Source: a virus (lineage: Duplodnaviria; Caudoviricetes). From it: a stretch of DNA of 42,941 nucleotides. Of this stretch, positions 1-42,941 are shown piece by piece. The translations under genes and the position numbers were made by a program. Below the pieces are notes generated by a model, which did not search any database, had not been told where the DNA came from, and worked only from the letters and a program-made list of their open reading frames with translations. The stretch's first letter is position 1; every line of letters starts with the position of its first letter. The stretch is from the IMG/VR virus record IMGVR_UViG_3300029825_000016, positions 1 through 42,941 of that record; one strand, given 5' to 3'.

Positions 1-168
1 CCGTTTCTTCTGATTGTCTTTTAGGTATCTGTTGATCTCATCGGTTGAAATGCGCCATTGTCCTCCAACCTTAGAAGCTATTAAAGAACCTCGATTAATT
101 AAACGGTACAGGGTGCGCTCTGACACTTCCAGATGCTCCGCGGCTTTTTGAACACTAATCAACCCCAT
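1..168 (-). CDS. Excisionase/AlpA-like winged-helix DNA-binding protein (HTH_17 type), 3' end runs off the window; not in ORF track
   Basis: Hand translation MGLISVQKAAEHLEVSERTLYRLINRGSLIASKVGGQWRISTDEINRYLKDNQKKR; RBS GGGAGGGGGTG before ATG at 168; typical A..L.VS..TLYRLI..G.L.A.KVG.QWRI pattern. Confidence 0.85.
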   Translation of the reverse strand, partial: MGLISVQKAAEHLEVSERTLYRLINRGSLIASKVGGQWRISTDEINRYLKDNQKKR

Positions 169-262
169 CGATTCACCCCCTCCCTTTTTTCTTCTGTAAC
201 CACTCCGGTTACGGAAGGATGTAAAACCGATTTACACCCCCTTTTTTAACTGTTATGTCATG

Positions 263-291
263 ATTGTACCAGTTTAAACATGACAAGTCAA
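263..291 (-). promoter_or_regulatory. Sigma70/A-type promoter for the excisionase-like gene, overlapped by TGTCAT/ATGACA boxes
   Basis: - strand TTGACT-17 bp-TACAAT with extended TG; TGTCATG at 256-262 and CATGACA at 279-285 and 299-305. Confidence 0.7.
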
Positions 292-433
292 GTCAAAACA
301 TGACAAAAAAGGACAAAAAATATAACCGCCATCTTCCTCGCGGGTTTGGGGCGTAGGCCACACCTTGCTTCCTTGCAGGCGTGAACACCGCCGTTTGTAG
401 GGAGGCTGTAACTTACCGCCCCCTTGCAATGCG

Positions 434-487
434 CTGTCATCTGTCATCTGTCATCTGTCATCTGTCATCTGTCATCTGTCATCTGTC
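434..487. repeat. Tandem heptamer array (CTGTCAT)x7 + CTGTC
   Basis: Read directly; perfect copies, no spacers. Confidence 0.98.
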
Positions 488-500
488 TTTGATGACGGTT

Positions 501-532
501 AAAAAGAGGGCATCGGCTGCGCCTGATACCCC
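501..532 (-). terminator. Intrinsic terminator just downstream of the left portal copy
   Basis: - strand GGGGTATC(A)GGC-GCA-GCCGATGCCCT followed by CTTTTT. Confidence 0.65.
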
Positions 533-553
533 GACATAGTCCTATAATCTATA

Positions 554-1804
554 TTATGAATTCCCGCCCGGATTTTGACGCGGCTGCTGTTTTGATGCGG
601 TTTCTGTGCTGATCATGTTGCCGTTGACGAGGTACGCATCGCCTGAAACGCCTTCGATGGGGTTCGCTTCCTCCATCTCGCGCCATTCGTTGGCATTGAT
701 GATGCCGTTTTGACGCTGAATCCCAAGCCCTTCCTGACGCGATTTGTAATCGCCGCGCAAAAGCCCCTCAACATTGAACTTCACATAAAGCCCTTTCGCG
801 CGTTCGCTGTCGCCGAACAGCTTCCAGTTCAGGGTTTGCTCCCATCTTGTGATCCACGGCAGGATGGTGTATTTCACGAATTCGAGTGATTGATGCTCGA
901 TGTTGTTGTTTGTTGAGCGCTCCAAGTTGGCGATCATGTGCGGCGGTACGCGGAACAGTCCGCAGATTTCATCGCGCGTGAATTTGCGGGTTTCGAGGAA
1001 TTGCGCATCGGTTAACGGCATGGGAATCCGGCTCCACTTCATGCCCTCTTCAAGGACGAATGGCCGCCATGAGTTGGCAAGACCGGAACCGCGTTCATCA
1101 AGTGATTTTTGCAGGTTTTGTTTTGCTGGATCCGATAATTTACCGGGATGCTCCAATACGCCGCCGATATTCATGCCCTGCCCGAAGAATCTTGCTGCGA
1201 ATTCGGTTGATGCAAGCCCCAAGCCGATTGCTTCCCGCGCCATGCTGACAGGTGAATAGCCCATGATGCCGTCATAACCCAACCCTGGGATGTGCAGGAT
1301 TTTACGGGGTACGAGCGTTTCCATAGTGCCGTCATCATTGGTGATGCGGTACATCAGGCGTTTGGTTTCTCTGTCCCTGAACGGCTCAACTCTCTGCCAA
1401 TCGAGGGGTTCGAGTCCAAGAAGCCCCGCATTTCCGTATCTGCGTTCGTCATCTCTCAGGATCCTGCTGTACCCGTTGCCCGACAGCGCAATATGCCCCA
1501 TAATGGTTTCGCGCCATGTCTGCGAGGTCATCTCGTCGTTAGGTGCGTTGTGCAGCAGGTGATAAGCCGGATGGCTATGCACCTTGTCAGCCCCGCCACC
1601 TGCACGCGCTTGATAGACGAACAGCGGCAGACTACCGATTGTTTCAGCAAGGACGCGCACACAGGAATAGACTGTAACGTATTTCAGGGCGCTCGATTCG
1701 CTGACTGTTACGCCTGAATTGACGTTAACGCCCCAAAACCGCTCAACAATTTTGGTGAAAGGATCATCGATGCTCTGATTAAACACCCTGCTGATGAAAC
1801 TCAT
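554..1804 (-). CDS. Phage portal protein, HK97 family (with alternative 3' end)
   Basis: VYSCVRVLAETIGSLPL, GLGYDGIMGYSP, LEEGMKW, DAQFLETRKF..EICGLFRVPPHMI, NNIEHQSLEF motifs; follows terL. Confidence 0.97.
   Translation of the reverse strand: MSFISRVFNQSIDDPFTKIVERFWGVNVNSGVTVSESSALKYVTVYSCVRVLAETIGSLPLFVYQARAGGGADKVHSHPAYHLLHNAPNDEMTSQTWRETIMGHIALSGNGYSRILRDDERRYGNAGLLGLEPLDWQRVEPFRDRETKRLMYRITNDDGTMETLVPRKILHIPGLGYDGIMGYSPVSMAREAIGLGLASTEFAARFFGQGMNIGGVLEHPGKLSDPAKQNLQKSLDERGSGLANSWRPFVLEEGMKWSRIPMPLTDAQFLETRKFTRDEICGLFRVPPHMIANLERSTNNNIEHQSLEFVKYTILPWITRWEQTLNWKLFGDSERAKGLYVKFNVEGLLRGDYKSRQEGLGIQRQNGIINANEWREMEEANPIEGVSGDAYLVNGNMISTETASKQQPRQNPGGNS
561..994. repeat. Diverged direct repeat of portal 3' end, copy A (pairs with 42508-42941)
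   Basis: Hand alignment at offset 41947: 31 mismatches in 434 bp, no indels; 915-994 identical. Confidence 0.95.
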
Positions 1805-4179: not shown

Positions 4180-4307
4180 GTTTGATCCCCCTAAACGGGT
4201 TTGCGGATAAACGGAGATTTATTCACGCGAGCCTGCCAGCGCGGCACGGGTCTAGATAGCCCCAAGGATTTTAGGGGGCCTAGGTACCCCCCCGTCGGGC
4301 TAGCCTG
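4180..4307. other. Probable cos/packaging initiation region
   Basis: Non-coding gap between HNH and terS with G/C runs (CCCCCCC, GGGGG) as in HNH-associated cos phages; exact cut site not determinable. Confidence 0.55.
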
Positions 4308-4664
4308 TTATGCCTTATTAATTTTACCTCCGAACCTCTCATGCCTTGCATTATGGCACCTATGACAGAGGGTCATTAGGTTCTCTGTGTCGTCTGAGCC
4401 GCCTTCGCTCTTGGGTTTGATGTGATGCACTACCGTGCCTGGTGTTACATCTCCACGCTCTAAGCAATCATGACAGAGGGGGTTCTGCGTTATAAACCAT
4501 TGCCGGAGTTTATCCCACGACGATGAGTAACCACGCTCCCGGAAGTTACCCCGTGCTTTGTCGTATCGCTGAGCTCGTTCTCTCTTGTGCTTCTCACAAT
4601 ACCCTTTCTCTACGAGTTCCCGACAACCGGGGTGGTTACAAGAACGCTTAAGACGCTGAGCCAC
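4308..4664 (-). CDS. Terminase-associated HNH endonuclease (HK97 gp74-like)
   Basis: CNHPGC..YCEKH, RERGY..W, PLCHDC, VHHIKP..GG, NLMTLCHRCHN. Confidence 0.93.
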   Translation of the reverse strand: MAQRLKRSCNHPGCRELVEKGYCEKHKRERAQRYDKARGNFRERGYSSSWDKLRQWFITQNPLCHDCLERGDVTPGTVVHHIKPKSEGGSDDTENLMTLCHRCHNARHERFGGKINKA

Positions 4665-5239: not shown

Positions 5240-5316
5240 GTTCCCACCCCCAAAAATAAAGGCCGCCCCAATTAAGGGACGGCCTCCTGTCTGTTCAGGT
5301 CAGCCACGAACAGGAA

Positions 5317-5574
5317 TCAATCTCCCTGCCCGTATTTTTGAATATACTTCTGTTGAAGTTTTAACCTCCGGTAAAGTTCAGATTCCGGAATGTACCAACG
5401 CCCTCCCAATTTGGTGCCTGGTATTTCGTTGTTCCGCAAATAATTTCTTATGCTCTGGCCACTTAAACCAAGTATCTTCCCCGCCGCATCTGGCGTTAAA
5501 AGCCTGTCCCGCAATTTCCTTCCCTCCCCCTTTTTTTCGCGCATTACTGACTCATGACATACAGCGGAGGTCAT
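5317..5574 (-). CDS. HTH_17/excisionase-like DNA-binding protein
   Basis: LLTPDAAGKILGLSGQSIRNYLRNNEIPGTKLGGRWYIP. Confidence 0.8.
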   Translation of the reverse strand: MTSAVCHESVMREKKGEGRKLRDRLLTPDAAGKILGLSGQSIRNYLRNNEIPGTKLGGRWYIPESELYRRLKLQQKYIQKYGQGD

Positions 5575-5768
5575 TTTCCATCGTTCCTCAATCTTATTGC
5601 CGCTCTATAGCGTTCGAACAACCGCTGCTCCTTCCAATCCTTCTGCGTAACTCCGAACCATATTTTCTTCCACCATGGCATCTTGCACCATTTGATTTCG
5701 ATTTGTTCGAGCGGGTCGGTTGTTGGTTTTGAATGCGTTCCAAACGGCTGTTTGCTCCAATCGATCAT
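5571..5768 (-). CDS. Hypothetical protein
   Basis: RBS GGAGGTG; overlaps both neighbours in the operon. Confidence 0.65.
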   Translation of the reverse strand: MIDWSKQPFGTHSKPTTDPLEQIEIKWCKMPWWKKIWFGVTQKDWKEQRLFERYRAAIRLRNDGK

Positions 5769-9264: not shown

Positions 9265-9537
9265 TCAGCTTATCGCCCTTAGTGGATCCGGCGCGTATTT
9301 AGCGTACAGGTCAAGCATCATCTGCTGGCGCTCCGCGCGCGTCAGCATGTGTCGTTTGCGGTGTTTGGGGTATGCTTTCGGCTCGATCTTGCGCCCCTCG
9401 CAGATTTTGTACTTGATCGCCCTAAGATTTCTGCCCGGCATGTGCTGTTCGTGAATTTCCGTTGGCGTCAGCCCCGCCATGCAGAGCTGTTTGAGTTGCA
9501 TCAATTCTTGATCCGACCACGGAATATTACCGCTCAT
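9265..9537 (-). CDS. Small HTH (Myb/GcrA-like) protein
   Basis: WSDQELMQLKQL..AGLT..EI...GRN..AI. Confidence 0.6.
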   Translation of the reverse strand: MSGNIPWSDQELMQLKQLCMAGLTPTEIHEQHMPGRNLRAIKYKICEGRKIEPKAYPKHRKRHMLTRAERQQMMLDLYAKYAPDPLRAIS

Positions 9538-10568
9538 GTGATCGCCTCCGTAACGTTAAATAGTCCCATCGTTTCGCCGATTCGCGCCTCTGCTATTTGC
9601 GCATATTCCGGGTTGAGTTCGATTCCAATATAATCCCGGAAGTTCTTTGCCGCTACAACCCCCGTTGTTCCGGCTCCGAAAAATGGATCGAGTACGATGC
9701 CGCCTTCGGGACACCCGGCCAAGATACAAGGCTCGATCAGCTTTTCCGGGAACATCGCAAAGTGCGGAATGGTTGATCCTTGTGTTGCCACCGTCCAGAC
9801 ATCGCGCTTGTTTCGGGTTTTTGGATTCTCTCCGACTCCCTCTTTGGCATCCCATCGGTCATTGAATCCCTTGACGGTTCGGTTTTCGTGGTCGTCAGTT
9901 TTCTTTCTGCGGCGGTCATTCATGTGTCCGGTGAATCCTTTATCGGGGCGTGGCCCAAATTCTAATTGATCCGGTCTTGTTGTTGACGCAGGTTCCTTGA
10001 TCGCTTCGTGGTCGTAATAGTACCGCTCTGATTTTGAGAGCAGGAAGATGTATTCGTGGCTTTTTGTCGGTCTGTCGGTCACGCTTTCAGGCATCGGGTT
10101 TGGTTTGTGCCAAATGATGTCTGATCTTAAATACCAACCATCTGCCTGTAAAGCGAAGGCCACGCGCCAAGGGATGCCGAGAAGGTTTTTGGATTTGATG
10201 TCTCCAAAATTTACTTCTGTTACGGCGGGTTTTCCGATTGACCCGCGATTGGTGCCTTGTTTGTAACGCCCTGCGTTTTCTGGATATTTTGCGCCGTCTT
10301 TACCGCTTCCGGCATAACAATCGCCCAAGTTCAGCCAAACAGTTCCGTCATCCCTCAGCACCCGCCAAACCTCGCGGAACACTTCCACCAAACTTGCCAC
10401 ATATTCTTCCGGAGACCGCTCCAACCCGATTTGTCCGTCCACTCCATAGTCGCGCAGTCCGTAATACGGCGGGGATGTTACGCAACAGTTAACCGATTTT
10501 TCGGGGATGGTTTTTAAAAGTTCTTTGCAGTCACCTATGAGGATTTGATTCATTGTCAACCCCCGCAT
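9534..10568 (-). CDS. Orphan DNA methyltransferase, beta class (N4-C/N6-A)
   Basis: TSPPY catalytic motif precedes LDPFFGAGTT SAM-binding motif; IIWHKPNPMPESV; no adjacent restriction gene. Confidence 0.93.
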   Translation of the reverse strand: MRGLTMNQILIGDCKELLKTIPEKSVNCCVTSPPYYGLRDYGVDGQIGLERSPEEYVASLVEVFREVWRVLRDDGTVWLNLGDCYAGSGKDGAKYPENAGRYKQGTNRGSIGKPAVTEVNFGDIKSKNLLGIPWRVAFALQADGWYLRSDIIWHKPNPMPESVTDRPTKSHEYIFLLSKSERYYYDHEAIKEPASTTRPDQLEFGPRPDKGFTGHMNDRRRKKTDDHENRTVKGFNDRWDAKEGVGENPKTRNKRDVWTVATQGSTIPHFAMFPEKLIEPCILAGCPEGGIVLDPFFGAGTTGVVAAKNFRDYIGIELNPEYAQIAEARIGETMGLFNVTEAIT

Positions 10569-19946: not shown

Positions 19947-20096
19947 ATGATAGAATATACCTCTGGTACTTCTGCCGTCCGCGTTATTTCGATGTCCGTC
20001 CATGCCCAAATACTCATGATCCGTTTCGAGAGTCAAAATGGTACAATCATTGTGGAGAATCTGAATAGAGGTGGTAAAAGTGGCACCAAAGTCTAA
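19947..20096 (+). CDS. Small hypothetical protein between cI and integrase (49 aa)
   Basis: RBS GGGAGG before ATG 19947; overlaps integrase start. Confidence 0.5.
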   Translation: MIEYTSGTSAVRVISMSVHAQILMIRFESQNGTIIVENLNRGGKSGTKV

Positions 20097-21270
20097 GCCC
20101 GGCCAGCGTATGGCAACGGGCATTTACCGACAGGCAGACGGTTCCCTCTCCATCAGATTCAGCACCGGGCGCAGAAACCGCGAAACCGGCAACTATGAGA
20201 TTTTTGTGGAGACATTTCGCGGCAGCGTGGAGGATGCCAAAAAACGCCGATCAAAGCTGATCAGCGAACACGCCGAAGGCAGACTCAAGCCCGTGGACAA
20301 GCATAAGAGTTTTGGGGATTACATGGAAGCGTTTTTCAGGTATAACGATCAACGCGTGGCGATGAAAAAGATCAGGCGCAGCACAGCCGATTATTACGCC
20401 GTAACCATCAAGCCGTATTTTGGCAAACTATGGGACAAGCCCTTGACCAAAATCACAGCAGACGACATCCTGCAGGTGTTCGCGCAGATAAAAACCAAGA
20501 ATGGCCGCTCCTGTTCAACGGATTATGTCCTGAGCGTCTACCGGGCATTTCGGGCGGCGTGGAAAAGCAGTGTGGATCTGAAAATACCTGTGCCGGACAT
20601 CCTGAACGACATCAAGAAAATGATGCCCGATCCGCTCAAAAAGCGGCGAACCGTGCTGGAACCGTATCAGTATAGAAAATTGCTTGCGGCGACAGATGAT
20701 CCTATCACCCACGGCATCCTAACCTGCTTAATGCACACGGCGATGCGTTTGAATGAATGCCTAGGCTTGCGATGGTCCGACGTTGATTTTAACCGGATGC
20801 AGATCACAGTCGAACAGCAGGTACTCAAAAAACCGGACGAAAACGGGAGCAGGTTCGGGCCGCACAAAACGTATGCCGCTTACGGTCCGCGCATCATCAA
20901 GATGACAAAAACACTTGCCGGTGAGTTAAAATCCTTACGCCCAGTGCTTGCCGTCATGAAGCTAAAAGCCGGACAAGCCTGGCAAAACTTTGATTTATGC
21001 TTCCCAACTTCCATCGGTACGCCTATTGCCTATAGCCGATGGGAAAGGAATAAAATCAAACCTCTTTTTGCAAAGGCTGGCGTACCGCCGATCAGAGTGC
21101 ATGACATTCGGCACAGCACAGTCACCTACCTGCTGGCCGAAGGAGTTTCTCCGGCCATCGTGCAAGAAATAGCGGGACATTCCGACATCAAAACGACGAT
21201 GGTTTATAAGCACTTAATCGCCAATGCGCAAAGCGAAGCAATGGACAAGCTCGACAAGGCGATGAGATAG
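20071..21270 (+). CDS. int: Tyrosine integrase
   Basis: TAMRLNE (R), HDIRH (HxxR), GHS, terminal Tyr in TTMVY; adjacent attP. Confidence 0.96.
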   Translation: MVKVAPKSKPGQRMATGIYRQADGSLSIRFSTGRRNRETGNYEIFVETFRGSVEDAKKRRSKLISEHAEGRLKPVDKHKSFGDYMEAFFRYNDQRVAMKKIRRSTADYYAVTIKPYFGKLWDKPLTKITADDILQVFAQIKTKNGRSCSTDYVLSVYRAFRAAWKSSVDLKIPVPDILNDIKKMMPDPLKKRRTVLEPYQYRKLLAATDDPITHGILTCLMHTAMRLNECLGLRWSDVDFNRMQITVEQQVLKKPDENGSRFGPHKTYAAYGPRIIKMTKTLAGELKSLRPVLAVMKLKAGQAWQNFDLCFPTSIGTPIAYSRWERNKIKPLFAKAGVPPIRVHDIRHSTVTYLLAEGVSPAIVQEIAGHSDIKTTMVYKHLIANAQSEAMDKLDKAMR

Positions 21271-21271
21271 C

Positions 21272-21298
21272 AAAAGCCCCGATTTGACGGGGCTTTTT
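21272..21298 (+). terminator. Intrinsic terminator after int (possibly bidirectional)
   Basis: AAAAGCCCCG-ATTTGA-CGGGGCTTTTT. Confidence 0.85.
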
Positions 21299-21313
21299 CA
21301 ATGCTCATTTTTG

Positions 21314-21564
21314 TTTATCAAAAGTTTTATCAAAAACCGGATTTTATCAAAAGTGTTGTTTTTGCTGAACCCTTGTCATTGCTAGTTTGGTGCGAAAGGG
21401 GGGACTCGAACCCCCACGGTTGCCCACTAGATCCTAAGTCTGATTTTAGGTGATCCAGAGCGATCCAGAGAGATCCGGAAAGGCGATATAGCAGGGTTTT
21501 TCTCTGTCAAGTGATCCGGTGGAATCCAGATTAATTCGGATTGTTTATCAAAGATTTATCAAAA
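21314..21564. other. attP: core plus arm-type and accessory-factor repeats
   Basis: TTTATCAAA(A/G) at 21314, 21326, 21343, 21544, 21555 flank the tRNA-derived core; GATCC(A/G)GA 10-bp-period repeats at 21452-21480 and similar units near 21513-21530. Confidence 0.88.
21388..21441 (-). other. attP core = 3' half of tRNA-Leu(UAG)
   Basis: - strand AGACTTAGGATCTAGTGGGCAACCGTGGGGGTTCGAGTCCCCCCTTTCGCACCA: anticodon arm (TAG), long variable arm, T-arm, CCA; 5' half absent. Confidence 0.9.
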
Positions 21565-22552: not shown

Positions 22553-23128
22553 CTATCTAGCAGGGGTTTTAAAAATATTTTCAAATTCTTTTAGGGAAGT
22601 GTCTAAAATTATGACCGCAAACTCCGTTTTAACCTCAACCTTGCGATCGGTGATTATGACCACTCGGGGGAACACCTTCCACGGCCACGCCTCCGCATCA
22701 TGCAGCACGATGTACTTGCCGATGTTCGGATAGTTCCGTTCGTTCTGCACTTCGAGAGCGAAGTAATAACGCTTGTGATTTATCTCGTAAATGCAAAACG
22801 CATCAGCTCTCAATCCTTCAACCGCATACTCACATGCAAAAGTCTTAATCAGACCGCCTTGTTCCTTCAGCCTTAGATAAAATTCCGTCCGCAAAAGCCT
22901 GTGTTGCAACTGTTTCAGCCCCGCCAAATGGTAAATGTATTGCCCGGTATAAGGCTCTTTTGACCGCTTGACATAATCCGTTTGGTTGACGATCTCCCTC
23001 AGCCTGCGATTGGCAATGATCCGCTGATATTTCTGCCCTGTAAAAAACAGCCTTTCGATCTGGCTTCTGCTGGCCGCCCCGAAGTCCTCAACGAATCGAA
23101 TGATAGCATTGTCACGCTTTGTCAGCAC
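22553..23128 (-). CDS. Replication-relaxation (Replic_Relax)-like protein
   Basis: LTKRDNAIIRFVEDFG...QIERLFF winged helix, HRLLRTEFY, RADA...ALEVQ nuclease-like core; follows FtsK. Confidence 0.75.
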   Translation of the reverse strand: MLTKRDNAIIRFVEDFGAASRSQIERLFFTGQKYQRIIANRRLREIVNQTDYVKRSKEPYTGQYIYHLAGLKQLQHRLLRTEFYLRLKEQGGLIKTFACEYAVEGLRADAFCIYEINHKRYYFALEVQNERNYPNIGKYIVLHDAEAWPWKVFPRVVIITDRKVEVKTEFAVIILDTSLKEFENIFKTPAR

Positions 23129-23766
23129 AGCTCGACACCCTTGCTGTTTCTCGCTTGAGGTTCGGACTTGCGGCAGAAGGGTTTGATCAAAGACCGGGCT
23201 TTGCTGTCGGGCAGAAGCATCACTTGCACTTCTTTGTCCTTCGACCCTTGCTGATAGATCGCACGACCGGGAATCTCAATATCAGCCGCTTTGTCATTGT
23301 CTAAGAGTATCCTTGAGTTGACCTGATTCTTTACCGCAAACGCTAAAACAGCTTGGGTGTTCGCCTTGATCAAGCCCGGCACGGTTTCAGCAGAAGGCCG
23401 TTGAGTACAGATAATGAAATAGATCCCAACCGCCCTGCATATCCGCAGCAGTTTATCAACTTTGGCCTGAATCTCCTTGTTTTCTCGGAGGTTTGCATAT
23501 TCGTCAATTACTACAAGATGGTGGTTCATCTTCGTCCTGCGCTTATTGTATTCTGTAACGTTTACCACCCCGGCCTTGCCGAGTGTGTGGTATCGCTCTA
23601 TTGTAAGTTGTTCCAACCGATTAAATAATTTCAGCGCCCCGGTTTCATCCTTGGCGAATCCGACCACATGCTCGACTTTGCGGAACATCTCAAACTCCAC
23701 GCCGTTTTTGAGGTCAACGAGGTGTAATTGCAAGTCTGCCGGTGACTTCGTGAGGATCAAATTCAT
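23122..23766 (-). pseudogene. 5'-truncated FtsK/SpoIIIE-like ATPase
   Basis: VDLKNGVEF, Walker B VVIDEY, RAVGI..IICTQRP, PGRAI present; Walker A and N-terminus absent; no clear RBS. Confidence 0.7.
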
Positions 23767-24844: not shown

Positions 24845-25010
24845 CTTTGATCACTCCTTTCTGTGCCACGTTCGCCCCGACATACAGCCCCAGCGCGATA
24901 TTGACCGCCGCGATCCACTCCCCGCCGCCCAGCTTGCCCAGAAATAGCGCCACGCTTGCGATTACGATGACCACTACCGCCGCGATGAATTTGCGACTTG
25001 TGTATTTCAA
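24825..25010 (-). CDS. Holin-like two-TM protein
   Basis: SRKF start, two TM helices, LYVGANVAQK end. Confidence 0.7.
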   Translation of the reverse strand: MKYTSRKFIAAVVVIVIASVALFLGKLGGGEWIAAVNIALGLYVGANVAQKGVIKDVPPES

Positions 25011-25786
25011 GTCACTCCCTCCTTCCTAATCAACTCTAGCGGAATGCTTGCCGTCTGCAGCGTTTCCGTAAGCCTGCCCCTTGCCACTGCAGCATAATAC
25101 TCATCTTTTTCAATCCCGATCACCCGAAAACCCTCTAACACTCCCGCCGCTAGTGTCGAGCCGCTGCCGGCAAATGGATCGACAATCACCCCGCCCGCCT
25201 CGCAGATGTTGACCAGTTCGCGCATCAGCGTCAGCGGTTTCTCGGTTTGATGCAGGCGTTTGGGTGCGGCTGTCATGCTGTACGAAAACAGCCCTGGCAG
25301 GAAGGGCGCGTTGCGTTTTATATCCAATGGGCCATTGCTGCCCCAGACAACGAATTCACACTGTTGCCTAAACCTGCCCGGTTGCGGACGCGAGGCCTTT
25401 TTATCCCAAACGGCTATGCCACGCCAAATCCAGCCCGCCCATTGCAATGCATCACACAGTGCACATAGTTGCCGCCAATCAGAAAATATGGCAACAACCC
25501 CGCCTTTTTTTGTGATCGCCCGCCCTAATGTTAACCAATGCGCCGTCCACGCCATCCACGAATGCTGATCGCGGGTGTCTCCCTCGAAATCGTGCTTCGT
25601 ATATTCTGCCTTGCTATCATTATTCAAATATTTGATTCCCGTACTTTGCGTCCGGTCGCCACGAAACAGCCCGCCGCTACTATAGGGCGGATCCGTGATA
25701 ATAGCGTCGACGCTGTCCGGCGCTATTTCGCTAAGCGCCTGTAGCGCGTCGCCGTGAATAACAGTGTTGATAATGTTTTTATTCAT
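25007..25786 (-). CDS. DNA adenine methyltransferase, beta class (start trimmed to MNKNII)
   Basis: TDPPYSSGG, WDK, HQTEKP, DPFAGSGST; RBS AGGAGG. Confidence 0.92.
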   Translation of the reverse strand: MNKNIINTVIHGDALQALSEIAPDSVDAIITDPPYSSGGLFRGDRTQSTGIKYLNNDSKAEYTKHDFEGDTRDQHSWMAWTAHWLTLGRAITKKGGVVAIFSDWRQLCALCDALQWAGWIWRGIAVWDKKASRPQPGRFRQQCEFVVWGSNGPLDIKRNAPFLPGLFSYSMTAAPKRLHQTEKPLTLMRELVNICEAGGVIVDPFAGSGSTLAAGVLEGFRVIGIEKDEYYAAVARGRLTETLQTASIPLELIRKEGVT

Positions 25787-25802
25787 TTTGTTGCTTTGCC
25801 TC

Positions 25803-26231
25803 CTACAGCCTTTTGGCAATACTTTCTCTCAGCGCAACAAGCGGGAACAGCTCGCCCGGACAGGTTTTTACCGCGTACTTACTATGCGGCTCGATTTTTT
25901 CTACCGGGATGCCGTGTCGCTTGCAGATGTTGCAGCAGAGCAGATCCAATAAAAAAAGAGCCTGCTTGTCCGGCTGCTCCTTGTCGAAATTGCCCACTAC
26001 GCAGATTCCGATTGACTCATCGTTCTTTCCTTTGGTGTGCGCTCCAACCTCGTTTTCTGCCCTGCCCGTCAGGATTGCCCACTTGCCATTGATGCGCTCG
26101 ATGCCGTAATGATAGCCAATATCCCGATAACCCAAGGTGTTTCGATGGTAGTTTTCGATGGCTTTCCAGTCGTGGACTTCGCCGTCTGCGGTTGCAGAAT
26201 GATGGATTATGATGCGTTTGGGTTTGTTCAT
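25803..26231 (-). CDS. Endolysin, N-acetylmuramoyl-L-alanine amidase (T7 lysozyme-like, catalytic domain only)
   Basis: IIIHHSA, DIGYHY, GAHTKG.N..SIGIC..GNF, H...KTCPG. Confidence 0.93.
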   Translation of the reverse strand: MNKPKRIIIHHSATADGEVHDWKAIENYHRNTLGYRDIGYHYGIERINGKWAILTGRAENEVGAHTKGKNDESIGICVVGNFDKEQPDKQALFLLDLLCCNICKRHGIPVEKIEPHSKYAVKTCPGELFPLVALRESIAKRL

Positions 26232-27103: not shown

Positions 27104-27526
27104 TTAGGATATGTAAGCTGCTTTTATATAAATCGTAACTGCGGAACTGCTCTGATTGGTTATTAGAATCGTATCTTTTGCCCCGGTTTTACCTTGTCTT
27201 AAATGCCAGGTCACAAAACCCGGCAATTCTGCGGCGGTTTCAGCAACCGTCTCTGTCGGTGAATAGATGGATATAAGATAAAAGCAATGCCCTGATGAGG
27301 ATTGAAGTGGTTGCGATACCGTATTCCCTACCGCCACCACTATAGATGTGGGAATGCTCTCGATAAAAGTTATCTTGGGTATTCCCCCCGCTTGTATGGC
27401 GTCGACTTCTACTGCTAACCCATCCACCCCCTCCTTTAACTCCTTCACATCCCCCTCAATCCGGTTAAAATCCCCTGGCAAAGGCACATCCTTGCTCGTC
27501 CAGTTCGTCTTAGGATCAATCCACAT
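27104..27526 (-). CDS. Tail fibre/baseplate-associated protein (start MWIDPKTNW)
   Basis: W..PKTNW...DFNRIEG N-terminus typical of tail-tip proteins. Confidence 0.75.
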   Translation of the reverse strand: MWIDPKTNWTSKDVPLPGDFNRIEGDVKELKEGVDGLAVEVDAIQAGGIPKITFIESIPTSIVVAVGNTVSQPLQSSSGHCFYLISIYSPTETVAETAAELPGFVTWHLRQGKTGAKDTILITNQSSSAVTIYIKAAYIS

Positions 27527-36703: not shown

Positions 36704-36737
36704 TTTGGCACTCTCCTAAGCTTTATTCTCCAAACGG

Positions 36738-36790
36738 TAGCGGGCAGGCGGTGGAGTGAGCCGCTTTTCGGGTGCGACCCTAGCCCGCCA
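36738..36790 (-). ncRNA. Three-way-junction structured RNA in the chaperone leader (c4-like)
   Basis: P1 TGGCGGGC/GCCCGCTA, P2 GGGT-CGC-ACCC, GAAAA linker, P3 GCGG-CTCACTCCA-CCGC. Confidence 0.6.
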
Positions 36791-40517: not shown

Positions 40518-41738
40518 TTATCTCAGGATGACAACTGGGGAAACGGTGATGCCGCTTTCGAGTTTGAGCGGCTCCTTGACCCAAAGCTGCCCATCGATGT
40601 TGGCGACGATGCGGAACTGGGTCTGGAAGTTGGCGAAACGCGAATGCTCAGAAATGGCGATGAACGGGCCACTACCCGGTTTGATCATGTAGTAGTTGAG
40701 TTTGGCGAGAACAATGTCGCCTTCGTTTCCGAGCGTCGGGGTCTTGCCGTTCCACTTGACCGGGATGCCGAGCAGGGTTGCAGGTACGCCCTTGGTTGCA
40801 TCGCCACCGTTGTAGATATAATTGTTGTTCGGGTCGGTCATGGTCATGATGGTCGGCATCAGGCTCTGGTTGATGGTCCAAAGCGGTTCGCCGGGGCCTG
40901 CATAAAGCACGGCCAACATGTTCAGGAAATCGCGATATACGACGGTCGCGGCAGTGTTGCGGGCGATTCTGATCGCGCCAGGAGACTTTAACAAACCAAG
41001 CGGGCATCCCGCTCCTGAGCCTTGCAGGAATTTAGAATCGCGTCCGTCAAGCCATGCAAGACGCATCAGTCTGTCTACAAGCGCGCCCGCCGCCTTCCAG
41101 TTGGCAAGAGTCTCGTTGTTGATGGTGGCGAGTCCGGCGCACTGATACGGGGTCAGGGTCAGATCCTTGATTGCCGGATCGTTGACGGGGTTAATCGGCT
41201 GCCCTTCGCCCTTCCATGTGAGAGCCACGCCGCCCAAATACCCGTCATTGCCCTGCTGCAGGTATGGGATCGAGAACGGGGCATCAGGCGGATCGCCTGC
41301 CGGGATGACGTTAGCGCGGGGCATGACAATCTCATCCTCGCCGTTCAGGGAAAGGATGTTCTCAGCGAAACGCGGAGGAATCATGATGCCGACATCGGTT
41401 GTGGACAGGTTTTTCATCCTGCCTTTGCTGTCGCCGTTCCTGACGCAGTGGAGGAACTCGCCAAAGTTCTCGAATCCGCAATTATCAAGGTCTTTGTTGT
41501 CTTTCGGGGGTTCGGGGTCGCGTTTGTCTGCCGGGCGCGCTGAATCCTCAAGGCGTTTTTCAGCAGCTTCGGCGGCAATTACGGTTTTCTGCCATGCGTC
41601 GATCTGAGAGTTGAACGCATCGTAAGCGGTTTGCTCCTCTGCGTTCATGGGTCTGCCTTCAGCAAGGGCTTTCTGCAATACAGCGTTCTGCGCATCGCAG
41701 ACTTCGCCAAGCTTATGGCGGGCATCGATTAAAGTCAT
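40518..41738 (-). CDS. Major capsid protein, HK97 fold, with N-terminal delta domain
   Basis: Coiled-coil N-terminus, G..IP, W.GEG, TLLGIPV, GDI. Confidence 0.93.
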   Translation of the reverse strand: MTLIDARHKLGEVCDAQNAVLQKALAEGRPMNAEEQTAYDAFNSQIDAWQKTVIAAEAAEKRLEDSARPADKRDPEPPKDNKDLDNCGFENFGEFLHCVRNGDSKGRMKNLSTTDVGIMIPPRFAENILSLNGEDEIVMPRANVIPAGDPPDAPFSIPYLQQGNDGYLGGVALTWKGEGQPINPVNDPAIKDLTLTPYQCAGLATINNETLANWKAAGALVDRLMRLAWLDGRDSKFLQGSGAGCPLGLLKSPGAIRIARNTAATVVYRDFLNMLAVLYAGPGEPLWTINQSLMPTIMTMTDPNNNYIYNGGDATKGVPATLLGIPVKWNGKTPTLGNEGDIVLAKLNYYMIKPGSGPFIAISEHSRFANFQTQFRIVANIDGQLWVKEPLKLESGITVSPVVILR

Positions 41739-42490
41739 TGTTTACCCCTCCAAATATTGTTTTTATTGGCTTCGATTTTGGCCTGATATAAAGCAAAAAG
41801 ACCGTCGTAATCGGTCTTTTCAGCTTTTTCCGGTTCTTTATGGGGCTGCGCGATCAGTAATTTGGGCGGGTTTTTGTACCGCGAGAAGTCCATCTCCTGA
41901 TCGTTGATAAACACTTTGCCGTCCTTGACACAGGCTGCGATCTGTTTTTCCTGCTCGATCTCGTCTGCAAACCCCTTTTCCACGGCTTCCTCGGCGGTCA
42001 ACCACGTTTCCGCGTCCATGATGGCGATTACGTCATCACGCTTAACCCCTCTGCTCTCGTAAACCGCGATGATTGACTCCCTGATCCGTTCAAGGTCATC
42101 GGCGGTTTTACGGAAGTCGTCCGCGTAGCCGACTGCCCAAGTCCACGGGTTGTGGACCATCATCATCGCGTTTTTGGGCATCGTGATGGTGTCGCCCGCC
42201 ATTGCGATGACTGAAGCAATCGACGCCGCCACGCCGTCCACGTAGACGTGTATTTTTGCCTTGTGGCGCTTTAATTGGCTGTAAATCGCATGACCGGCGA
42301 ACACATCCCCGCCGTAGCTGTTGATGTACACATTGATTTCGCTGACATCGCCGAGCGCGTCAAGGTCTTTTTTAAACTGCTTTGGAGTGACTTCATCGCC
42401 CCACCAAAGAATGTCAGAGATTTCACCGTAGATCAGAATTTCGGCGGGTTTGTCCTCTGCGGCGGCTTTGAAAGTCCAGCATTTACTCAT
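41735..42490 (-). CDS. ClpP-type prohead maturation protease (start MSKCW)
   Basis: INSYGGDV, DGVAASIAS, MMVHNPW, ETWLTAEEA..GFAD; RBS GGAGGTG inside the portal 3' end. Confidence 0.95.
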   Translation of the reverse strand: MSKCWTFKAAAEDKPAEILIYGEISDILWWGDEVTPKQFKKDLDALGDVSEINVYINSYGGDVFAGHAIYSQLKRHKAKIHVYVDGVAASIASVIAMAGDTITMPKNAMMMVHNPWTWAVGYADDFRKTADDLERIRESIIAVYESRGVKRDDVIAIMDAETWLTAEEAVEKGFADEIEQEKQIAACVKDGKVFINDQEMDFSRYKNPPKLLIAQPHKEPEKAEKTDYDGLFALYQAKIEANKNNIWRGKQ

Positions 42491-42941
42491 TCCCGTTCTC
42501 ACCTCCGTTCCCGCTCGGATTTTTGCGCGGCTGCTGTTTTGAAGCTGTTTCTGTGCTGATCATGTTGCCATTGACAAGATAGGCATCGCCTGAAACACCT
42601 TCGATGGGGTTCATTTCCTCCATCTCGCGCCATTCGTTGGCGTTGATGATGCCGTTTTGACGCTGAATCCCAAGCCCTTCCTGACGTGATTTGTAATCAC
42701 CGCGTAAAAGCCCTTCGACGTTGAACTTCACGTAAAGCCCTCTTGCGCGTTCGTTGTCACCGAACAGCTTCCAGTTAAGGGTCTGTTCCCACCTCGTGAT
42801 CCACGGCAGGATGGTGTATTTCACAAATTCGAGTGATTGATGCTCGATGTTGTTGTTTGTCGAGCGCTCCAAGTTGGCGATCATGTGCGGCGGTACGCGG
42901 AACAGTCCGCAGATTTCATCGCGCGTGAATTTGCGGGTTTC
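42483..42941 (-). CDS. Portal protein 3' part, copy B (5' part outside the window); overlaps protease start
   Basis: Near-identical to the last ~145 residues of the 554-1804 portal; stop overlaps protease ATG region. Confidence 0.92.
   Translation of the reverse strand, partial: ETRKFTRDEICGLFRVPPHMIANLERSTNNNIEHQSLEFVKYTILPWITRWEQTLNWKLFGDNERARGLYVKFNVEGLLRGDYKSRQEGLGIQRQNGIINANEWREMEEMNPIEGVSGDAYLVNGNMISTETASKQQPRKNPSGNGGENGNE

Follow-up and report, generated by a model that had tools for sequence, protein, structure and literature searches.

The stretch of DNA analysed here (the window) is one whole contig of 42,941 bp, IMGVR_UViG_3300029825_000016 (Caudoviricetes), which encodes small and large terminase subunits (terS, terL), an HK97-family portal, a ClpP-type protease, a capsid protein, tail, lysis and replication functions and a tyrosine integrase. 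The phage in the window, referred to below as the helper, is a temperate, long-tailed phage of HK97 type. Once positions 1-994 are taken off the window, a helper circle of 41,947 bp remains. The features of the helper and of the portal region are listed here, with "satellite" denoting a second element to which window 1-914 belongs and L084 a metagenome contig of that element:

554..914, minus strand: copy A, the 3'-terminal part of the portal gene that the satellite itself carries (408 aa; window 903-488 is 100% identical to L084 1-416)
915..1302, minus strand: portal middle, identical in helper and satellite, with 915-994 repeated at the contig end; probably the stem and clip, from an HK97 alignment
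1303..1804, minus strand: helper-specific portal 5' part, diverged in the satellite counterpart
4198..4664, minus strand: helper HNH gene and downstream cos-like stretch preceding terS (called cos from its position), homologous to the satellite HNH gene (71% amino acid identity) and the stretch that follows it
5281..5531, minus strand: helper HTH_17 gene, 96% identical in DNA to the second HTH gene of the satellite
20071..21441, plus strand: helper tyrosine integrase (phrog_1)
21388-21441, plus strand: attP resembling a tRNA 3' half and adjoining the helper integrase, with a T-arm match
27104..27526, minus strand: last gene of the helper tail module, the first 35 residues 59% identical to a 179-aa C1q-like protein of the satellite
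41735..42502, minus strand: helper ClpP-type head maturation protease
42483..42941, minus strand: copy B, the authentic 3' end of the helper portal gene (422 aa)

ARAGORN found no whole tRNA at the attP, whose half-tRNA we read as a putative tRNA-Leu. Because this site lies beside the integrase within the 41,947-bp circle, the helper was probably assembled in its excised, circular form. The helper also has two DNA methyltransferase genes (window 9534-10568 and 25007-25819) and, between the lysis genes and the integrase, a gene pair of FtsK-like and Replic_Relax type (22553-23766, minus strand). An Rfam int-alpA RNA motif scores above the gathering score at 36727-36790 (minus strand), directly downstream of the major tail protein gene.

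The original prediction started from the two portal 3' ends, and recomputation returned the same figures: 561-994 and 42508-42941 align without gaps and with 31 mismatches in 434 bp. Its picture of five residue changes, about 25 silent differences and purifying selection on both copies also stands, since 25 of the 31 mismatches are silent and the other 6 fall in 5 codons (S/N, K/R, A/M, Q/K, G/S; dN/dS 0.056, Fisher p 6e-13). The copies are identical across the last 80 bp (915-994), which is probably an assembler overlap. Copy B runs directly into the protease gene, now confirmed as ClpP-type; the match of copy A stops at 554-556. The helper arrangement recurs in contigs of individual runs (labelled X1 to X6), where record 10 of run X3 has the letters of copy B over 561-2827 and record 23 of run X6 has them over 561-1225, each followed by the protease gene. 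A search for other phages with a duplicated portal 3' end, as had been proposed, came back empty: none of 80 other portal loci in the viral contig scan has a second portal match.

Beyond copy A, the left end of the window contains the following:

1..168, minus strand: satellite HTH_17 gene (MerR-like/excisionase-like; phrog_66, E 3e-10), first of an HTH-parA-RHH operon
256..305, minus strand: extended -10 promoter-like site (-35 at 291, -10 ending at 263) with three TGTCAT/ATGACA boxes
323..333, minus strand: downstream arm of an 11-bp terminator-like hairpin with its upstream arm at 491-501, a long-range stem in the window fold
336..487, minus strand: 152-bp insert in the hairpin loop, made up of ~45 bp without assignment, ~58 bp of a BRO-N antirepressor remnant (~380-437) and a heptad array (434-487)
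488..553, minus strand: spacer and hairpins after the satellite's last gene, from the fold; run X3 has sequence other than portal ahead of 488-548

A terminator, hairpins, a heptad array and an excisionase-like gene had been described here, and all were recovered (fold z -4.2 for the hairpins; an HTH_17/excisionase-like ORF) except the terminator, which a simple minus-strand scan did not flag in the window. An intact terminator-like hairpin with a T run lies at L084 403-429, and it exists only in the variant that lacks window 336-487. This insert is absent from the related contigs L083 and L084 and from runs X1, X3 and X5, the joint 335>488 being present in three of four runs; without it the flanks pair perfectly into an 11-bp hairpin with a T run behind it, so that the heptads and the BRO remnant look like a later insertion. 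Rfam gave no match of note in window 1-1000. The HTH_17 gene is cut by the contig end one codon before its stop, and its L084 copy matches PF12728 (E 1.5e-15). The gene next to it in L084, and in the same place in a further contig, L082, is ParA; a serine recombinase hinted at in this position by loose letters of run contigs proved to be the same ParA gene. The promoter-like site at 256-305 is likely to be an autoregulated promoter of the partition operon. The heptad unit holds the same hexamer that is found three times around this HTH-parA promoter, and the array could be an operator or a parS-like array, most variants being without it.

A search with the HTH protein returned three near-identical metagenome contigs among 19 loci. 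In L084, copy A is followed by the HTH_17 gene, ParA (PF13614, E 3e-36), a small ORF, an RHH-like protein (a weak RHH_1 match, below the cut-off), a second HTH_17 gene and an O-like Rep (phrog_270) with five internal 22-bp iterons. After Rep come a DnaC-like loader (IstB/DnaC match), the HNH gene and a stretch homologous to the helper's HNH-terS spacer, an HK97-type capsid protein (PF05065, 456-476 aa, 32% identical to the helper capsid; its predicted model is poor, pLDDT 57), a 67-aa ORF, the 179-aa protein with a predicted C1q-like fold (TM 0.72) and a complete portal, whose ORF runs on into copy B and the helper protease. In the cos-like stretch after HNH, ~45 bp differ between L082 (~9690-9740) and L084 (~5635-5685) with identical flanks, the L084 version being the better match to the present helper; retargeting to different helpers is a possible explanation. 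Short direct repeats within the RHH-like ORF (L084 1843-1945) make a second parS candidate.

Forty-nine of the 64 ORFs of L084 were scanned in Pfam and the 19 main ORFs in PHROGs, the remaining 15 overlapping scanned genes or lying in the helper part. No integrase, recombinase or resolvase was found among the 49 scanned in Pfam, and no terminase, protease or tail module among the ORFs scanned, which do include one tail-tip-like gene. The claim that 1-914 is one end of a second, satellite-like element is borne out by the linkage of copy A to the HTH gene in X1 contigs, L083 and L084. Extension to the left, where an integrase and a primase or Rep had been anticipated, gave the Rep, the DnaC-like loader and ParA in L084 but no recombinase. 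The idea of integration into the portal gene, with a replacement 3' end brought along by the element, is not supported, given its full portal of its own and the lack of a recombinase among the 49 L084 ORFs scanned, and any attachment by integration is further disfavoured by its encoding ParA and Rep and appearing to close on itself. What fits best is the alternative that had been held in reserve, an independent satellite with its own portal that the assembler joined to the helper.

We consider it probable that a separate element with a period of 9,539 bp, most likely a free plasmid-like satellite circle, ends in window 1-914, and that the join is probably only an assembler crossover at the identical portal stretch. 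The period is the distance from copy A to copy B in L084. For the 408-aa portal as for the RHH protein, the longest contig measures 9,666 bp (9,539 + 127), and 127 bp is a usual assembly overlap; this fits a closed circle plus overlap, by a length arithmetic that assumes both proteins on one contig. (Another locus of the same length as the satellite circle, L158, was set aside as a chance match with a GC of 0.67.) Two k-mer contigs of run X1 agree with L084 with 0 differences, record 1 joining copy A to HTH and ParA and record 5 linking the 179-aa gene with the 5' end of the satellite portal.

The way in which the two crossed contigs begin and end points in the same direction. The window begins 80 bases ahead of the first A/B difference, goes once round the helper loop and exits into A; L084 begins 55 bases ahead of its own first difference, goes round the satellite loop and exits into B. 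In each, the crossing falls at the point of expected self-closure, and the branch taken is the one still unused. A figure-of-eight graph would result from two circles with one identical stretch in common, an assembler walk through it would yield crossed contigs of this kind, and we infer that the window junction is such a walk, the length of the lead changing with the assembly. This evidence on the junctions is drawn from assembled contigs. Contig depths, which are not copy numbers, were ~5-7 for the element against 50 for the helper in run X1, 4 against 5 in X2, 3-4 against 6 in X4 and 11 against 32 in X5; these four runs come from two studies (2014, 2024), and the window's own source is possibly among them. 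The element never exceeded the helper in depth in the four runs, which a co-integrate would also give. In run X6 the helper is present with no depth on window 1-300, the HTH gene.

The satellite portal is optional and 86% identical to that of the helper. It is diverged up to the equivalent of window 1303, identical over 454 bp (window 1302-849, compared with the portal in L084) and then ends as A or B. Over codons 23-115 of the 5' part, dS between helper and satellite is 0.70 and dN/dS 0.06, and purifying selection (dN/dS ~0.06) is evident on both diverged parts of the satellite gene. Thirty-two of the 48 residues at 113-160 differ from the helper, as against 0 of 160 at 161-320. All four portal combinations occur in the protein collection: the helper 5' part with B occurs on 9 contigs (six B-ended helper-type proteins), the satellite 5' part with A (408 aa) on 5 contigs (P0145 and P0146 join this 5' part to the copy A end), the helper 5' part with A on 1 contig, the window, and the satellite 5' part with B on 2 contigs.

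If the crossed contigs were real, homologous recombination through the shared 390-450 bp would have fused both elements, reversibly and with no need for an integrase, into a co-integrate of 51.5 kb in which both portals are intact hybrids (416 and 414 aa). Both reciprocal junctions do exist as contigs (window and L084; three contigs in all), residues of A and B are mixed in one portal protein (P0153), a gene for a RecE-like exonuclease is present in the helper, and the portal middle lacks silent differences between flanks with dS of 0.4-0.7, which implies recent exchange. Some of that DNA identity, however, could come from the collapsing of a bulge in assembly, and two circles with one shared repeat would give exactly these crossed walks without any supporting read. 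Fourteen of the 17 contigs with a full-length portal are uncrossed, no contig with both junctions was seen, and 51.5 kb amounts to 123% of the helper length with two cos-like sites. We regard such a co-integrate as unlikely.

Variants of the element bear on whether it is instead a reduced temperate-phage derivative or PICI-like island, the full form of which would carry an integrase arm and of which the 8.3-9.5-kb circles would be deletion products, with the portal as passive cargo that plays no part in hijacking. L082 holds, in one contig, the order int-cI-cro-ant-BRO'-HTH-ParA...capsid; its integrase-repressor arm, joined through the BRO remnant, matches the helper along 2.9 kb at 99.8% identity, and may be a second assembly crossover or a real integrative form of the satellite. 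Only 17 bases follow the 179-aa gene before L082 ends, and they contain no portal start. In a 220-base contig of run X3 (record 9), the promoter and 488-548 are linked to a further 72 bases, of which the 30 bases shown overlap the end of L082 by 5 (30 + 12 + 30 = 72), and this short overlap suggests that a portal-less circular variant of ~8,329 bp is likely to exist. The portal-less variants make the portal dispensable. The absence of the portal from L082 and the X3 variant, and the phage type of Rep and DnaC, would suit a phage derivative. The 152-bp BRO-HTH link, on the other hand, looks derived, for it occupies the loop of a hairpin that is perfect without it, and three of four runs lack it; the BRO remnant has about the length of a k-mer, so that a second crossover in assembly could arise there; the X6 depth is as expected if another replicon has a matching stretch; and both diverged parts of the satellite portal are under purifying selection, though that signal may predate capture. 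On balance a phage derivative seems improbable. Separately, L082 1-4533 has the helper's integrase with a different cI N-terminus, cro and antirepressor, which we read as an immunity-module swap with its boundary inside cI. A 375-aa integrase that grouped in an HTH cluster (P0466) was treated as a clustering oddity.

The reading closest to the original prediction, a site-specific helper-embedded satellite (HES) in the portal gene that supplies a replacement 3' end, is very improbable, for although the duplicate 3' end is silently diverged, an HTH_17 gene adjoins it and HESs with portal-gene sites are described in enterobacteria in passages of 10.1101/2022.07.18.500453, the gene after HTH is ParA and not an integrase, L084 has no recombinase, a whole portal is present in place of a 3' piece, the identical leads of the two contigs differ in length (80 and 55 bp), and the second portal match is missing from all 80 other portal loci.

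The capsid gene places the satellite, probably a free circle, among other small elements. A capsid profile search gave 37 viral loci, all without a match to the tape-measure or the major tail protein of the helper; direct terminal repeats occur in four, of 8.3-9.8 kb, and those annotated (10 of the 37, scanned in Pfam) include integrase-primase-capsid loci, HNH-terL-capsid-portal loci and circles without an integrase hit. In a FastTree phylogeny of 72 capsid proteins, which is partly circular in that satellite rows were fetched by likeness to the satellite capsid, the satellite capsid falls in a clade of 31 rows (support 98) with no full-phage row, apart from the helper capsid. Within the same clade, L122 and L126 are 8-10-kb circles with a primase and an IS110-type recombinase, L126 also with an Imm11 gene, and no integrase among the ORFs scanned; L129, L121 and L140 are small elements with a tape-measure-like gene adjoining the capsid gene, L129 being a circle without an integrase hit. 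L123 and L124 have the capsid gene twice, ~7.5 kb apart.

A Bacillota host is likely, as suggested by named portal relatives in Moorella, Brevibacillus and Paenibacillus at ~60%. The attP was found in 0 of 3 and 0 of 401 genomes (404 in all), and the capsid profile matches 2 of the 401. In viral contigs no portal relative exceeded 45% identity, and scans there gave 1 distant locus for HTH, 2 distant loci for ParA and none for a single capsid query or the attP pattern; HTH matches in genome contigs were all distant. The satellite DNA had no match in plasmids or phages, and capsid matches in plasmids reached at most 33% identity among the best 30 of 65.

Tailed-phage satellite-plasmids, PISP (TG93) and cf-PISP (TG54), were described in 2026 with relatives only in Vibrio, according to the main passages of PMC13230959. 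The present satellite would work most like these, but corresponds to neither gene list. As portrayed in those passages, the likeness to both lies in a small circle (a probable one here, by length arithmetic), ParA and Rep, the lack of integrase and tail, and a capsid that groups with satellites; a MerR-like regulator is shared with PISP, and a PF05065 capsid, portal and HNH with cf-PISP (PMC13230959). L084 has ParA and Rep and lacks an integrase and a tail module; L082 carries the integrase arm. The satellite differs from both in its probable Bacillota host, its lambdoid O-like Rep with DnaC, its optional helper-like portal and its C1q-like tail-tip homologue, and no TerS, TerL, protease or head-tail genes were found in it. 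PISP proper (TG93) is outlined with a PF03864 capsid E, a protease and a small terminase, whereas the satellite capsid is PF05065, with no protease or TerS hit.

The cf-PISPs and cf-PICIs, as those passages present them, have a full head and packaging set, and the satellite has only capsid, portal and HNH (PMC13230959, PMC10085698). With cf-PICIs it shares its own capsid, portal and HNH, and its capsid clade includes HNH-terL-capsid-portal loci; it differs in being without terminases, protease, adaptors and integrase. Lacking terminases, protease and adaptors, it cannot form filled heads alone. The SatelliteFinder model for PICIs, in the part of PMC10085698 that sets it out, requires an integrase and forbids a portal; L084 has no integrase and does have a portal, and standard screens would likely miss such satellites, since the model forbids the portal. 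Capsid redirection was shown for Ccm of SaPIbov5, whose helper is the cos phage phi12, and the relevant passages mention no satellite portal, unlike the present case (PMC8569155). HESs integrate into late genes, the portal included, by a tyrosine integrase; the satellite resembles them in its association with helper late genes, its HTH_17 gene, BRO fragments and captured late genes, as the corresponding sections describe them (10.1101/2022.07.18.500453). HESs have an integrase at the end and attL/attR in a late gene, however, and the satellite has ParA after HTH, no recombinase and is probably not embedded. No Bacillota satellite-plasmid or portal co-integrate was found in the part of the literature searched. 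With a capsid, an optional portal and no terminase or protease, the gene set falls between the PICI and cf-PICI models and would be a probable Bacillota variant.

The free satellite circle would be kept as a partitioned plasmid through ParA/RHH and copied from the iterons by Rep and DnaC. When the helper enters lytic growth, the satellite HNH and cos-like site would recruit the helper terminase, and the satellite capsid protein would build or reshape heads by analogy with Ccm of SaPIbov5, which is an integrated island. The captured, optional portal could act as an adaptor, its divergent wing suiting the satellite scaffold domain, while a stem and clip identical to the helper's would let the helper terminase and neck still dock. 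The scaffold domain of HK97 binds a groove in the portal wing, with eight contact residues named in the relevant passage of PMC10275583, and the portal clip meets the terminase and later the adaptor in the part of 10.1101/2023.02.24.529869 that deals with it. Six of the eight scaffold-contacting residues map by alignment to satellite 113-160, the stretch with 32 of 48 residues changed, as an adaptor would have it. The adaptor role is only suggestive, because sibling phage portals differ from one another in the same wing segment too, in some cases more than anywhere else (0, 15, 24 and 25 of 54 residues in four comparisons). The helper would supply tails, protease and terminase, and the C1q-like protein may replace the helper's tail-tip protein. 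Alternatively, the satellite may be packaged as multimers in helper-size heads, where 4 x 9,539 would be 91% and 5 x 8,329 would be 99% of the helper length. It is doubtful that the captured, chimeric portal has a double use, both as a structural adaptor between the satellite capsid protein and the helper's terminase and neck and as a homology arm for reversible recombination, with no integrase, into the helper portal that leaves two working hybrid portals; if it did, the satellite, with and without its portal, would represent a living stage in between satellites that redirect capsids and those that form them.

For work with viral contigs, the case is a caution that duplicated late-gene ends can be assembly crossovers between helper and satellite. 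If the free-circle reading is true, the range of satellite-plasmids would widen from Vibrio to a host that is probably of the Bacillota, in a case where the same samples also yielded the helper, and the portal-plus and portal-minus variants, together with a portal that departs from the helper's chiefly in the scaffold-facing wing, would make it testable how satellites gain head genes and how portal and scaffold are matched.
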